A stretch of DNA of 64,000 nt, from IMG/VR virus record IMGVR_UViG_3300031972_002446, positions 64,001-128,000 of that record; one strand, written 5' to 3'. Position 1 is the stretch's first letter; each line of letters opens with the position of its first letter. Under the pieces are notes generated by a model. The model was not told the origin of the DNA and made no database searches. It was given only the letters and a program-made list of their open reading frames with translations. Source of the stretch: a virus. The position numbers and the translations under genes are program-made. Shown here piece by piece: positions 7,507 through 15,334 of the stretch.

Positions 7507-7565
7507 AATAATACAAAAATAATTATGGCACAGTCCGTGCGGCCTGGTTTTGTGTTTTTTTTACA

Positions 7566-7793
7566 TCAGACCGGATACCCTTCTTTTCTTAGAATATCTT
7601 TGGTGGGAACAACGAAAGTGAGTTGGTCGGCGTTTGTATAATCTCTCATTCCACGCTGGTCAATATACATATATTCGTCTAATACATCATGTTCATTCAT
7701 TTCGTGTATAACTGTTCTACAGGCGTCATAGGGTTGTTGACTTGTTGAATAAATTAATTGTAGTGTTCCGGTCGAAATATAATACTTACTCAT
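7566..7793 (-). CDS. hypothetical phage protein
   Basis: GGAGG RBS; ATGA overlap with the upstream gene. Confidence 0.65.
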   Translation of the reverse strand: MSKYYISTGTLQLIYSTSQQPYDACRTVIHEMNEHDVLDEYMYIDQRGMRDYTNADQLTFVVPTKDILRKEGYPV

Positions 7794-8566
7794 GCTGCTA
7801 CCTCCTCTTTTTTTAGAATTTTTAGTGCGTTTGCTGCTTCGCTACCCTTGGGCTGGACTCCATGAATTAGTAGGGCAAAATCCTGATTTGCTTTGGTTGG
7901 ATCGCAGGCATGGCTGTCGTCATTATCAATCTCCAAACCTAAATCGGCGGCTTCTTGTTTTGAGAATACTACCTTTGCAGATCGTAAACCGTGTTCTGCG
8001 ATTAGATGATCATCACGACCACCGTACGATGCAGTCAGAACCAGATTAGTCGGTACAAGGTCACGACTACGAACCCAATAGGTCAGAGACTTTGTGTAGG
8101 CGTAAAATAAAACATCGGGGTTACGCTCTGCGACTTTGATCCATGCCATGAAATACTTGTGACTAAACATATCACCAGACACATGAATACGAATGATTCG
8201 AGCATCCTTGGGTAACGCTGCACACAATCCGTCTGCCATAGCGTCACTTGTCTCCAGACTATGTATAGCGTCGTGATTGCGTTTGCGACTTTTGTAGGTG
8301 TTGGTGAATAATACTTCTTGACTAGCAGAGAAGCAACGGAATTTGGTATGAGGGCCGTCCTTGATTCTGCGACTACCGTCTGCCTGCTCTTCGGCTTGAG
8401 ACTTGCAGTTATAGGCGAAAGGACAGTCTACTCCCGATAATATATCGAAAGAATAAACTTTGGCAGTAGACCGTCCTATCTTATGACCCAACCACCGCTT
8501 GAGCACAGTTGTTGCGAGTTTGTATAGTTTCTTGAGTTTTGTATTCGCTGTTGAGAATTTTAGCAT
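7790..8566 (-). CDS. Gene product 88 (GP88)-like protein
   Basis: N.KL start, Cys motif CP.A..C...C, RIHVSGD, FYAYTK, P.NLVLTAS.GG. Confidence 0.75.
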   Translation of the reverse strand: MLKFSTANTKLKKLYKLATTVLKRWLGHKIGRSTAKVYSFDILSGVDCPFAYNCKSQAEEQADGSRRIKDGPHTKFRCFSASQEVLFTNTYKSRKRNHDAIHSLETSDAMADGLCAALPKDARIIRIHVSGDMFSHKYFMAWIKVAERNPDVLFYAYTKSLTYWVRSRDLVPTNLVLTASYGGRDDHLIAEHGLRSAKVVFSKQEAADLGLEIDNDDSHACDPTKANQDFALLIHGVQPKGSEAANALKILKKEEVAA

Positions 8567-8593
8567 GTCGTTGTCTCCTGTGGTTATCTCTCA

Positions 8594-8634
8594 AGTATAT
8601 CATAGTATCGTCTGGTGTCAACTAAAAACTATAG
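8594..8634 (-). promoter_or_regulatory. nested sigma70 + sigma28-like promoter
   Basis: CTATAGtttttagTTGACAccagaCGATActatgaTATACT. Confidence 0.75.
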
Positions 8635-8642
8635 AAAAAATA

Positions 8643-8674
8643 AAAATAATTTTTGGCATATCGCGTGCGGGCTG
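8643..8674 (+). repeat. ~32-bp exact direct repeat (second copy ~9588-9619) carrying a sigma54-like site and GC box
   Basis: aaaataatttttggcatatcgcgtgcgggctg occurs twice. Confidence 0.85.
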
Positions 8675-8769
8675 AAATTTAATATTTTTGTGTTGATTCC
8701 GGCCTGCTCCTAAATCATTGCAGAGCAACAACTTAGGGCAGGTACCGGAACACACCACGAAGAGAGTCG

Positions 8770-9153
8770 TTATGCTACTGCCCAGCCAAACAATGGCTTC
8801 CGGCAATTCTTTACACGCTCACAGTAGAACTGTCTAATAGCACCATCATGAGTTTCACATGTTACAATGTGATGAGTACGCTTGAAGTCTGGATCGTTCC
8901 TACGATAAGTAGAAGATCGATTCATCTTCTCGATAGCACTGTTAGAAAACTTATGAGGCTCTTCGACAACCTTAGCCAATACTCGCTTAGGATCACCATG
9001 CAGTGGCTGCATGTATTCAAAGTTATAAACTTCACCGACCTTAGCATCGCAGAGACTAGCCTGACGACCACCGTAAACAGAGTAAACTCCGAACAAAACA
9101 AGTGCTACAGCGATTCCACCAATGACACTTGCCATCAAAATCAAATTATCCAT
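8770..9153 (-). CDS. membrane-anchored hypothetical protein
   Basis: N-terminal TM helix; GGAGG RBS; sigma70 promoter at ~9190-9218. Confidence 0.65.
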   Translation of the reverse strand: MDNLILMASVIGGIAVALVLFGVYSVYGGRQASLCDAKVGEVYNFEYMQPLHGDPKRVLAKVVEEPHKFSNSAIEKMNRSSTYRRNDPDFKRTHHIVTCETHDGAIRQFYCERVKNCRKPLFGWAVA

Positions 9154-9213
9154 TTTTTTTCCTCCAAAGTGTGAAAAAACCTAAAACCATTTTACCATAT
9201 GCTCAACACCATG

Positions 9214-9516
9214 TCAAGCATAAACTCTCATACCTTCCTGAAAAGGTGTTCCGTGACTAGTGAACCATTCCCAATTTTTCTGGAATACGGACACTGGACT
9301 ATATTTGTTGATTCGTTTTTTTGTGGTTGGACTTTTCCATCCACCATGCCTCAGTGTAGCAGAATCATCATCATGAATCACTACAATATCTGTACTGAAA
9401 TGTTGAATCGCTACGCTACCACTCGGTAAAATTCTTGCTGTAGTATTGTTTCCCACCTTGCGTTGCATTCTGTTATTCTTGCCCAAAACTAATTGTGTTG
9501 CTTCTGCGTGTGTCAT
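9214..9516 (-). CDS. conserved phage hypothetical protein
   Basis: AGGAG RBS; TL..GGW.SPTTK.RIN motif. Confidence 0.7.
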   Translation of the reverse strand: MTHAEATQLVLGKNNRMQRKVGNNTTARILPSGSVAIQHFSTDIVVIHDDDSATLRHGGWKSPTTKKRINKYSPVSVFQKNWEWFTSHGTPFQEGMRVYA

Positions 9517-9539
9517 AAGTATTTTCTCCTTACTTGTTA

Positions 9540-9575
9540 TATCGTCAATTATACAGGCTCAACTTTAGTTGTCAA
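9540..9575 (-). promoter_or_regulatory. nested promoter with sigma70 shifted upstream of the sigma28-like element
   Basis: TTGACAaCTAAAGttgagcctgTATAATtgaCGATA. Confidence 0.8.
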
Positions 9576-13323: not shown

Positions 13324-13360
13324 TTTCTTTTCTTTCTAATCTGTTACTTGTTATATCCTA

Positions 13361-13401
13361 AGTATATATACTATATCGGAATTTGTCAAGCATTAATTTA
13401 G
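13361..13401 (-). promoter_or_regulatory. nested sigma70 + sigma28-like promoter
   Basis: CTAAATtaatgcTTGACAaattcCGATAtagtataTATACT. Confidence 0.75.
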
Positions 13402-13425
13402 AAATATTTTTATTATTTTTCTGTG

Positions 13426-13472
13426 TGCAAATATCATGCCAAAAATTTTTTTTGTTTGGCACATCGTTTGCT
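13426..13472. promoter_or_regulatory. back-to-back pair of sigma54 (-24/-12) consensus sites
   Basis: minus TGGCATGATATTTGCA (13426-13441) and plus TGGCACATCGTTTGCT (13457-13472). Confidence 0.65.
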
Positions 13473-14046
13473 GTAAGTTTTTTATCGTAACGCGGCCCGG
13501 CTCGTTACGTGATTTTAATAAGCCTCTTCGGGTGTCCAATATATTTCTTCAAACAAGTCCACACCAGTTACGTCACACCAATCAAGAGGGTGTGAGTTGT
13601 TCTCGTCACAAGGCTCAACACAACCTTCCGATTCCAGGGCAGCAATTAAAAGTTGCATATCGATGTTAAACATATCAGTTCTCCGTGGTAAGTGTTATAT
13701 GTCAAGTATATACATACTATATTTATTGTCAAGTACAATCTTTATTTTTTTTCGTAGATTGTATCAAGATAAATTTCATCAGCAGTCATAACATATCCGT
13801 ACTCACAATTAGGGGTATACACCCCAAAATATACCTTACCATTATCATACCCTTCGAACCCTACCATGATTCCAAATATAGTGTAGATTGTCAACATTGT
13901 TTTTCTCCGTGGGTTATTCTTTCCTATACTTTATATATCGACAACATACAGTAGAAACTTAACAGAAATTTTATTTATTTATTTATTATTTTTTTAACCA
14001 AACCCGGCGGCACTCTTTGTGCCAAAAATCTAATAATCTACCATAT

Positions 14047-14370
14047 TTATTCTTCTATAAAGGGTGATTCCTCACGATCCTGTAAAAATTCATACTGACT
14101 CTTTAATGCCTCGACACGTTCAGCACTTCCCGGTTTACCTATAGGTTTAGACATATGATCCACACCACCAACTACGCGAGGGTTTGCCTTTGTATGTCGT
14201 TTTCTGAAATGTTTACGACTAAACTTGACTACCTTTTCACCATCAATAGTACCTCCATCAGCAGCAGACTTCTGACAAGGGATAGCAATTCCCTGCCAAA
14301 TATTTTCACATTCGTCCCAAGCGTCTGATAAGATTTGATACTTTTTCATTAATTTTTCTGTACTACTCAT
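14047..14370 (-). CDS. hypothetical protein
   Basis: ORF coupled to the upstream gene; C-terminal PGS.ERV.AL..QY...E.PF. Confidence 0.6.
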   Translation of the reverse strand: MSSTEKLMKKYQILSDAWDECENIWQGIAIPCQKSAADGGTIDGEKVVKFSRKHFRKRHTKANPRVVGGVDHMSKPIGKPGSAERVEALKSQYEFLQDREESPFIEE

Positions 14371-14599
14371 TATAAAAATTCCTACAGTAAAGTATATTCT
14401 GTGCTACTCTAATTCCCTCGTAATCTTCTGGTCGACATTCTTGACAAGCCACCAAATAGCATTGTAATTTAGGCGTGTCAAATTTGTCAAGTACTTTGTA
14501 AAGGTACTCATATAAAGATGTTGATTTGTATTCATTCATTTTTTGCATCATCCTCAAATATAGGGTCGCCGTATTCATCGACTGGTATTCCGTCTTCAT
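14363..14599 (-). CDS. hypothetical protein, probably leaderless
   Basis: TTGACG-N16-TATATT promoter a few nt upstream of the ATG. Confidence 0.5.
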   Translation of the reverse strand: MKTEYQSMNTATLYLRMMQKMNEYKSTSLYEYLYKVLDKFDTPKLQCYLVACQECRPEDYEGIRVAQNILYCRNFYNE

Positions 14600-14726
14600 T
14601 CATAAATATATCACCATTTCGCAGACCGTCAATAGTGATTTCTAATTTTTCTTGCTCACTAAACATATAGCACCTTTTAATATTTTTTCAAAGTGTACCA
14701 AAATTTTTCCGTCTATGCAATCCGCT

Positions 14727-14915
14727 TTATGCGGCCCCGTAAAAATCGAGACCAGCCTGAAAGTGTACCGCTTCAGAATCATCATAATCGATTCTATCTT
14801 CGATAACTTCGCAATGCTCAAGGCACGTTGGGCAAAGATCGGCATCGGAGTGAACCGAAGCACCACAGCAATCAGAGGAGTAAACTATTTCGAAATTTTT
14901 TGAAGTGTTTAACAT
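14727..14915 (-). CDS. small Zn-ribbon protein (probable start MLNTSK)
   Basis: SDCCG...DLCPTCLEHC; AAGGA RBS; promoter at 14950-14985. Confidence 0.65.
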   Translation of the reverse strand: MLNTSKNFEIVYSSDCCGASVHSDADLCPTCLEHCEVIEDRIDYDDSEAVHFQAGLDFYGAA

Positions 14916-14949
14916 TTTTTTTATCCTTTGTTTAATGTTCTTTTTAGTA

Positions 14950-14985
14950 TATCGGAATTTTAACATACTAAACTTTAATTTGCAA
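14950..14985 (-). promoter_or_regulatory. nested sigma70 + sigma28-like promoter
   Basis: TTGCAAaTTAAAGtttagtatgtTAAAATtcCGATA. Confidence 0.65.
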
Positions 14986-15334
14986 GAAGAATTTTTTTCC
15001 TCTTTATAGTTTATATATAGTGCAAGTATCATGCCATTCGGATAAAATTTTTTTGCCTATACTTGTATACTTTTTAGATTGTCATTATGGCATAATTCAC
15101 ATTCTTGTAACATGATTTGTCATGTTATTGTGAATAGTACGTAAAACCCGTTAAATACGTGTCACATTATTGTGAACATGATTCATACGTACGTTACAGT
15201 CAGCATGGGGGGTTTTTTTGTTTTGTTATGATAATGAGAATCAGTATCAATAAGCCGGGGGTCATCCAAACATAATAAGGGCTATAAAATATAAAATGTA
15301 ATAGCTAAACCTTTCGCTTAGACCCTAAGTCCCT

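Follow-up and report, generated by a model that had tools for sequence, protein, structure and literature searches.

Transcription by the sigma-54 RNA polymerase is strictly signal-gated. The sigma-54 promoters of glmY and glmZ combine three GlrR sites (TGTCN10GACA) and IHF sites with overlapping sigma-70 promoters (PMC3045617). According to the citing text, a single sigma-54-like promoter of Pseudomonas phage YuA was mapped and is experimentally supported (Ceyssens et al. 2008, cited in bioRxiv 10.1101/2023.10.13.562163). T4-type phages carry PeSLs, promoter-early stem-loop cassettes whose stem-loops are effective terminators (Arbiol et al. 2010, PMC2839356).

The locus described here belongs to the 166-kb genome of an uncultured marine phage, and coordinates are those of the window, the stretch of 64,000 nucleotides that was analysed. 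The pattern GGCAY-N5-KTGC was found genome-wide as 11 strand matches representing 10 loci; first-order Markov shuffles gave 1.8 on average and never more than 5. Eight of the 10 loci are packed into 7.5 kb, at 7526-15036, in the spacers between small early genes of the minus strand. The initial annotation had placed eight sigma-54 (-24/-12)-like sites here, and the coordinates and strands of all eight were confirmed, as was their location between real genes; the raw ORF list contains ORFs over 13457 and 15021, both of which were judged spurious. Its division of the sites was likewise recovered. Three sites, 13426(-), 13457(+) and 15021(-), match TGGCAY-N5-TTGCW in full and are termed class A. 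The other five, termed class B, conform to TGGCAY-N5-GTGCGGSC and place a GC-rich stretch (GGCCTGG, GGGCTG in three sites, and CGCCGGG) at the would-be melting region. The eight divide evenly, four in gene sense and four antisense, in agreement with the claim that half point away from the genes. The sites are as follows.

7526-7547 (+): class B site TGGCACAGTCCGTGC then GGCCTGG; antisense; sigma-70 promoter at 7466-7493(-), its -35 box 33 nt away.
8654-8674 (+): class B site TGGCATATCGCGTGC then GGGCTG; antisense; promoter at 8594-8621(-), its -35 box 33 nt away.
9599-9619 (+): class B site; antisense; promoter at 9548-9575(-), its -35 box 24 nt away.
12368-12388 (-): class B site AGGCACAGGGAGTGC then GGGCTG; gene sense; perfect-consensus promoter downstream at 12318-12346(-), its -35 box 27 nt away.
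13426-13441 (-): class A site TGGCATGATATTTGCA, full sigma-54 consensus; gene sense; promoter downstream at 13361-13389(-), its -35 box 37 nt away.
13457-13472 (+): class A site TGGCACATCGTTTGCT; antisense, back-to-back with 13426 across a 15-nt A/T gap.
14003-14024 (-): class B site TGGCACAAAGAGTGCC then GCCGGG; core GGCAC-N5-GTGCC palindromic.
15021-15036 (-): class A site TGGCATGATACTTGCA; head of the minus-strand early gene array, with a predicted +1 near 15010.

In all eight sites a GG at -25/-24 and a GC at -13/-12 stand exactly 10 nt apart. When the distance between the half-sites was varied, positions 1-17000 of the window yielded nine occurrences at N5, two at N6 and none at N2-4 or N7-9, and the relatives, which are not independent samples, yielded 27 at N5 versus 0-3 at any other spacing; the rest of the genome held one or two at every spacing. 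The GG-N10-GC spacing is thus conserved among relatives. An approximate sigma-54 matrix, based on the published consensus, returned the three class A sites as its three best matches in the genome (18.5-18.6 bits), with 0.22 matches of at least 18 bits expected per genome, and strong matches were not equally frequent in the structural region.

The class A sites carry the full sigma-54 consensus, including three positions outside the search pattern. Among 19 unique class A sites, T was found at -26 in 19/19, a purine at -20 in 18/19, and A or T at -11 in 18/19. Class A fits the extended consensus YTGGCACGr-N3-TTGCW, and class B departs from the sigma-54 consensus in having G at -15 and GGSC at -11 to -8; the DNA 3' of the GC is A/T-rich in class A and G/C-rich in class B. 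Opening of class B sites should be hindered by the GC-rich DNA at -11 to -8. Judged by sequence, the eight sites are sigma-54-type elements, and those of class A look like ordinary enhancer-dependent promoters; to this extent the sigma-54 reading of the initial annotation stands.

The sites recur in related phages. In a complete 195-kb relative (G001), seven of the eight TGGCAY-N5-KTGC sites fell in the homologous 2-16.5 kb region, with none found for a reversed-pattern control, and the partial relatives showed the same clustering. Counterparts of 15021, with differing N5 spacers, are present in 12 related contigs; the back-to-back pair 13426/13457 is conserved in three (L002, L010 and G008), and the 12368 site in one of these (L010). 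Among relatives both half-sites persist, whereas the N5 spacer and the flanking sequence vary. In the spacer orthologous to 8654, class A, class B or a degenerate GGTAC..TTGC swap places among relatives, and the GG and GC survive in all.

The early region is also a mosaic of cassettes shuffled among relatives, since blastn of the window against nine related loci returned reordered blocks of 70-97% identity. The motif could accordingly have no reader of its own, being a repeated junction sequence of mobile regulatory cassettes that spreads by inter-cassette recombination as PeSL sequences do. The 9599 copy indeed shares with the 8654 copy an identical stretch of 32 nt that includes a T-rich flank, and the contigs of relatives tend to break in this early cassette region. 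Orthologous and paralogous copies, however, diverge in their flanks and N5 spacers and keep the half-sites and the exact spacing, which argues for selection on the motif and against hitch-hiking. We consider a readerless junction sequence quite improbable, and the pattern of conservation indicates that the eight two-part sites are real and under selection.

Another candidate function is that of a nucleic-acid hairpin, GCAC-N5-GTGC, serving as an intrinsic terminator or RNA processing site. Class B can form a stem of 4-5 bp, and one weak terminator-like site was flagged at 7528-7540(-), but class A pairs over only 3 bp, folding yields no more than -0.7 to -11 kcal/mol, and a U-tract is not consistently present downstream. 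Terminator-like sites numbered 6 in the region versus 4.4 expected, which is not an enrichment. A role as Rho-independent terminators was rejected, given the weak folds, the poor pairing of class A, the lack of enrichment, and the lack of a stable GC-rich hairpin with a U-tract, and hairpins of any kind seem a most unlikely basis for the motif.

Each small early gene is fronted by a strong sigma-70-like promoter, and all 18 promoter matches of at least 10/12 positions are oriented with the genes. A gene-strand consensus -35 box stands 24-37 nt from six of the sites and 68 nt from 13457; downstream of the palindromic site at 14010, which also reads on the + strand at 14009, there is only a weak promoter-like match (9/12 positions). 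Class B sites usually face back towards the gene before them, at 24 or 32-33 bp on the upstream side of a consensus -35 box, and whether the distance is 24 or 33 nt follows the promoter-cassette family.

Fixed distances of 24 or 32-33 nt from strong -35 boxes, with sites in both orientations, would also be in keeping with a DNA-binding protein other than sigma-54, phage-encoded or host, that reads TGGCAY-N5-KTGC. Such a protein might regulate the adjacent sigma-70 early promoters or act at cassette boundaries, and its likeness to sigma-54 would be coincidental or convergent. The GCA-N7-TGC core is palindromic, two class B sites are perfect GGCAC-N5-GTGCC palindromes, and class B has an extended conserved GGSC tail of its own. 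Against this, the asymmetry of the motif is conserved, with TGG on the left only and TTGCW or GTGCGG on the right only, and class A fits sigma-54 at the three positions that were not searched for. The distances to the -35 box put the motif centres at about -67, -70, -76 and -80, in no single helical phase, and a class I activator geometry was rejected on this ground.

At the head of the array, the 15021 site is accompanied by the following features.

15095-15112, 15118-15135 and 15160-15177 (no strand assigned): three 18-bp dyads of about TGTCACA-N4-TGTGACA, upstream of the 15021 site.
14957-14985 (-): TTGCAA-N17-TAAAAT, a sigma-70-type promoter situated after the 15021 site and ahead of the first early gene (ATG at 14916).

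Relative to the predicted +1 of 15021, the dyads are centred near -93, -116 and -158, in steps of 23 and 42 bp, an arrangement that looks like an enhancer. It is unique to 15021 within the genome, a dyad search near the other seven sites having returned only background, and no exact IHF consensus was found between the dyads and the site. In clade 2 relatives the sigma-70-type promoter is absent, and the sole promoter that can be recognised is the 15021 counterpart, some 50-60 nt ahead of the first ATG; different dyads, inverted in one contig (L047), occupy the same place.

A sigma-54 promoter needs an activator, and here the initial reading fared less well. Neither Sigma54_DBD nor Sigma54_CBD was matched by Pfam searches of the phage and four relatives; PF00158 (Sigma54_activat) matched only RuvB in these genomes, and the GAFTGA motif was found neither in them nor in 1.07 Mb flanking similar pairs of sites in other phages. 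A phage-encoded sigma-54 or enhancer-binding protein was thus rejected. The Walker-A proteins are RuvB, RecA, PhoH, a dNMP kinase and one 319-aa protein having no Pfam match. A literature search for phage-encoded enhancer-binding proteins returned nothing. That no activator was found in the phage or the four relatives is a point in favor of a reader other than sigma-54. Searches against cultured phages gave no nucleotide match and no close protein match, the best terminase and RecA matches being about 25-30% identical, and a DUF1501 gene of the phage is 36-48% identical to genes of Planctomycetota and Verrucomicrobiota.

Back-to-back pairs of the same consensus were found in more than 120 viral contigs ranging from 33% to 61% GC, where about 2-3 would be expected by chance. 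Of those pairs that could be placed between genes, 22/46 were flanked by divergent genes, versus a background of 17%. A single consensus across phages of 33-61% GC is difficult to reconcile with one phage protein of identical specificity, and this breadth fits a sigma-54-like reader conserved across hosts. In one large phage family, similar pairs are arrayed with a 47-bp period some 1.4 kb away from the large terminase gene; these arrays could indicate a different reader. On balance, a DNA-binding protein other than sigma-54 is the strongest competing candidate, a possible but rather unlikely reader of the sites.

The motif is established, as are its exact spacing, its conservation and its layout; from these we infer the binder and each downstream consequence. 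Our preferred reading, to which we assign a probability of about one half, is that host sigma-54 RNA polymerase binds the eight sites, class A as enhancer-dependent promoters and class B as boundary or antisense elements. The sites that the holoenzyme would bind sit within early-gene cassettes that shuffle. Those of class A would be working enhancer-dependent promoters: 15021 would head the early array, with its three upstream dyads binding an activator, most likely a host enhancer-binding protein; 13426, in tandem with a sigma-70 promoter, would contribute a further input under regulation; and 13457 would fire antisense. Class B would keep the -24 and -12 contacts with the melting region replaced by GGSC and, lacking a meltable region, would keep the holoenzyme closed or allow only weak opening. 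Class B sites come after the end of one cassette and before the A/T tract that belongs to the next sigma-70 promoter; mostly facing backwards, they would serve as markers or insulators of the cassette boundaries or else drive antisense transcription conditionally. The initial annotation had proposed antisense promoters and polymerase traps or roadblocks for the GC-fused sites, and we retain both as candidate roles. Further points against sigma-54 as the reader are the departures of class B from the consensus, the orientation of half of the sites away from the genes, the restriction of dyads to 15021 and the lack of an exact IHF consensus next to it.

If this reading is correct, a lytic phage with a sigma-54-wired early region would read a physiological signal of its host at the start of infection, and the GC-clamped variant, which faces backwards, points to a possible structural role for a closed polymerase complex. 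Since back-to-back pairs of this consensus are spread over more than 120 viral contigs that differ widely in GC content, the reader matters well beyond this phage, and its identity is testable by standard binding and transcript-mapping experiments. We also advance, as a doubtful and speculative extension, that unrelated phage lineages use backward-facing sigma-54 boxes, some of them GC-clamped shut, at early-cassette boundaries. The host's closed complex would then be a programmable insulator, roadblock or conditional antisense switch instead of an ordinary promoter, and a single enhancer at the array head would tie the region to a host signal.

The phage sites share the GG-N10-GC spacing of bacterial sigma-54 promoters, and class A has their full TGGCAY(R)-N4-TTGCW consensus. 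In contrast to those promoters, five of the phage sites are GC-rich at -11 to -8, and half face away from genes. As at glmY and glmZ, three dyads lie upstream of a sigma-54-type site, at about -90 to -160 from 15021, although these dyads match the GlrR consensus only loosely, and the phage differs in that neither an activator gene nor an exact IHF consensus accompanies its sites. YuA, as described in the citing text, is a precedent for a phage that has a host sigma-54-type promoter alongside sigma-70-type promoters. Where that phage has one mapped promoter with experimental support, the present 166-kb marine phage, unrelated to it, carries eight sites in an array, among them antisense and GC-fused variants, all recognised by sequence. 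The early region resembles PeSLs in having a strong sigma-70-type promoter for each small early gene, in the mosaic shuffling of cassettes among relatives, and in a conserved stem-loop between the cassettes of this phage's relatives. That hairpin, TAAGT-N15-ACTTA, has a loop polarity that follows the gene strand and usually lacks a U-tract. Unlike the PeSLs, the window is not enriched in canonical terminators, and where PeSLs have no -24/-12 box, the phage has a sigma-54-type box between the stem-loop and the promoter.

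The source contig is a single viral sequence of 165,940 bp, rated complete, of which the window forms bases 64001-128000. It encodes a large terminase, RuvB, RecA, PhoH, a protein with sigma-70 region 2 and a 4205-aa tape measure protein, and no close cultured relative of the phage was found. With the tape measure gene (window 41718-54335, +; PhageMin_Tail domain at residues 181-375), a tail of exceptional length would be expected. Minus-strand genes occupy the genome from about 0.5 to 80.8 kb, and in the first ~9 kb of that block, read leftward, small genes are each preceded by a near-consensus sigma-70 promoter; all 18 sigma-70 promoter matches of at least 10/12 lie on the gene strand. 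This same ~9 kb holds the eight sigma-54-like sites proposed in the initial annotation, all of which were recovered, and the claim that they are intergenic held for 8 of 8 loci, within 7.5 kb.

7526 (+), class B site
8654 (+), class B site
9599 (+), class B site
12368/12374 (-), class B site
13426 (-), class A site
13457 (+), class A site
14003/14010 (-), class B site
15021-15036 (-), class A site, head of array

The pattern GGCAY-N5-KTGC gave 11 strand matches, at 10 loci, in 166 kb, compared with 1.8 on average and at most 5 in first-order Markov shuffles. Within window 1-17000, nine matches had the N5 spacing, two had N6 and every other spacing had none, while the remaining genome gave 1-2 at each spacing. 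A genome-wide scan with an RpoN matrix, proposed earlier as a check on enrichment, found only background-level matches in the structural and replication regions, all in coding sequence. The three TTGC sites were the top three of the genome at 18.5-18.6 bits, with ~0.22 matches of at least 18 bits expected per genome, scores that are only indicative because the matrix is an approximation to the published consensus.

Some 15 related marine contigs were collected from IMG/VR by protein-anchored and pattern-anchored searches. The spacing, whose conservation in relatives had been set as a test, was retained, with 27 unique sites at N5 and 0-3 at other spacings. The complete 195-kb relative carried 7 of 8 sites within the homologous 2-16.5 kb region and had no matches to a reversed-pattern control; site placement in partial related contigs agreed with it. 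Between copies the N5 letters and flanks vary and TGGCAY and KTGC are kept, as in the orthologous spacer upstream of a 258-aa gene, where GG and GC are retained in 4 of 4 forms:

window, GTGCGGGCTG form
related locus L002, GTGCCGCCG form
related locus L010, TTGCTACAC form
related locus L006, GGTAC...TTGCT form

In L003 and L008 the site lies ~45 nt farther upstream of this gene, and in L004, L005 and L007 the spacer has no site. Because the half-sites are kept while N5 and flanks change, the pattern points to selection on what would be a two-part protein-binding site, not a hairpin or repeat. The early region is a mosaic of cassettes reshuffled among relatives, but this pattern makes it unlikely that the motif is passive cassette sequence. 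A hairpin function is very improbable: the sites fold at -0.7 to -11 kcal/mol on either strand, with no consistent U-tract, class A pairs only 3 bp, and we rejected them as hairpins or terminators. We regard the motif, and selection on it, as established. Window 8654-8685 and 9599-9630 share 32 identical nt (motif and T-rich flank) and diverge beyond, which suggests that one was recently copied between cassettes.

Class A sites (TGGCAY-N5-TTGCW; 19 unique across the clade, 3 in the window) are followed by A/T-rich DNA. All 19 have T at -26, 18 of 19 have a purine at -20 and again 18 of 19 have A or T at -11, counts that overstate independence because the copies are partly orthologous. These three positions belong to the sigma-54 consensus and were absent from the search pattern. 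Class B sites (21 unique, 5 in the window) read (T)GGCAY-N5-GTGC, with G, G, S and C occupying positions -11 to -8. The AT-rich early region is interrupted by GC-only boxes 8-11 nt long, such as GCCCGGCC and CCGGCCGGGC, some of which form the loops of A/T stems. CGGGCTG is common to these boxes and to the tail of class B sites. The 60-80 kb part of the genome contains 11 of its 25 G/C runs of at least 8 nt.

GC-only boxes, + strand, window starts: 1833, 2972, 5449, 10698, 11824, 13491, 14003, 14731

Sites pointing along the early genes lie 27 or 34-37 nt upstream of a sigma-70 -35 box, and for antisense sites the distance to the next promoter's -35 box is 24 or 32-33 nt. A classical activator position is unsupported, since the two antisense distances go with the family of promoter cassette and not with a single helical phase. 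Downstream of the consensus sigma-70 promoter at 7466-7493, a GC-richer stretch of ~350 nt without an ORF (window 7100-7460, -) is a candidate structured RNA; Rfam gave no match at the gathering threshold.

A conserved hairpin of 25 nt, TAAGT-N15-ACTTA, separates early genes in relatives L010 (e.g. 13154-13178), L002, L003 and L007, with loop polarity (TGTT...AAGG) always along the gene strand and compensatory changes in extended stems, usually without a U-tract. In motif orientation it is found downstream of GTGC, at 14 nt in 8 cases and 15 nt in 2, or else immediately next to the GGCA side. A sigma-54 start would fall at its base. The hairpin may be a processing site or protein-binding RNA element. 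The window has only two strict copies (1676-1700 and 1753-1777), with a further, diverged copy near 8712-8738.

The back-to-back layout of 13426/13457 was searched in IMG/VR as GCAA-N5-RTGCCA-N8-22-TGGCAY-N5-TTGC. Among the matches listed it occurred in >120 contigs (about 2-3 expected by chance, by our own estimate) of 33-61% GC, some with 47-bp periodic arrays. By crude gene calls, the pair or array lay between genes in 46 of 118 loci examined, and divergent genes flanked 22 of these 46, compared with 17% of all adjacent gene pairs. Such wide occurrence would favor a reader conserved across hosts, as sigma-54 is. A different DNA-binding protein is the less probable reader, kept alive by terminase-linked arrays and missing activators: among the matches listed, 47 loci have a large terminase gene ~1.4 kb from the pair, and no GAFTGA protein was found in 1.07 Mb of flanks. 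The search for a bEBP suggested in the initial annotation yielded no activator in the phage, the sole activator-domain match being RuvB, with no GAFTGA motif and no sigma-54 domains; those of its Walker-A proteins that matched a family fell without exception into different ones, and no sigma-54 activator was found in four relatives. We put the probability that the reader is sigma-54 holoenzyme at about 0.5. The phage DUF1501 gene shares 36-48% identity with genes of Planctomycetota and Verrucomicrobiota, only a hint of a possible host. Loci L055, L058, L062, L068, L075, L077 and others, a contig family with ~46% GC, carry 3 or 4 tandem pairs at a 47-bp period ~1.4 kb from a large terminase gene; such an array might supply promoters, or might function in packaging or regulation.

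The first early gene is preceded by site 15021-15036 (-), which has a counterpart in each of 12 related contigs; three different N5 spacers occur among these. Upstream of it are three 18-bp dyads resembling TGTCACA-N4-TGTGACA:

15095-15112, dyad centered at ~-93 from the predicted start
15118-15135, dyad centered at ~-116
15160-15177, dyad centered at ~-158

Their spacings are 23 and 42 bp, and no similar dyads were found elsewhere in the genome. Clade 2 relatives (L003/L008 around 5400-5560, L047, L027) have TGTAGCAAAATGCA-type dyads instead at the same distance, inverted as a set in L047. The specificity of a putative regulator appears to differ between clades. In clade 2 the first ATG follows the GC of the counterpart by roughly 50-60 nt, with no sigma-70-type promoter between. 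Related contigs G006, G007, G008 and G002 end within 0.3-3.5 kb of this site, as would be expected if assembly broke off in a hypervariable early region.

The layout is that of a putative enhancer-dependent promoter, comparable to glmY/glmZ, where three activator sites are combined with IHF sites and tandem sigma-70 promoters (PMC3045617); the window's dyads resemble the GlrR consensus TGTCN10GACA only loosely, and the site lacks an exact IHF consensus. The reshuffled cassettes can be likened to the PeSL (promoter-early stem-loop) cassettes of T4-type phages (PMC2839356), although canonical terminators are not enriched here. YuA is a published precedent for a sigma-54-type promoter in a phage (bioRxiv 10.1101/2023.10.13.562163). 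Sigma-54 promoters and early-gene regulatory cassettes are already known in kind, and the present sites are a variant form, of interest for the GC-clamped sites that face backward and for how widely the paired arrangement occurs.
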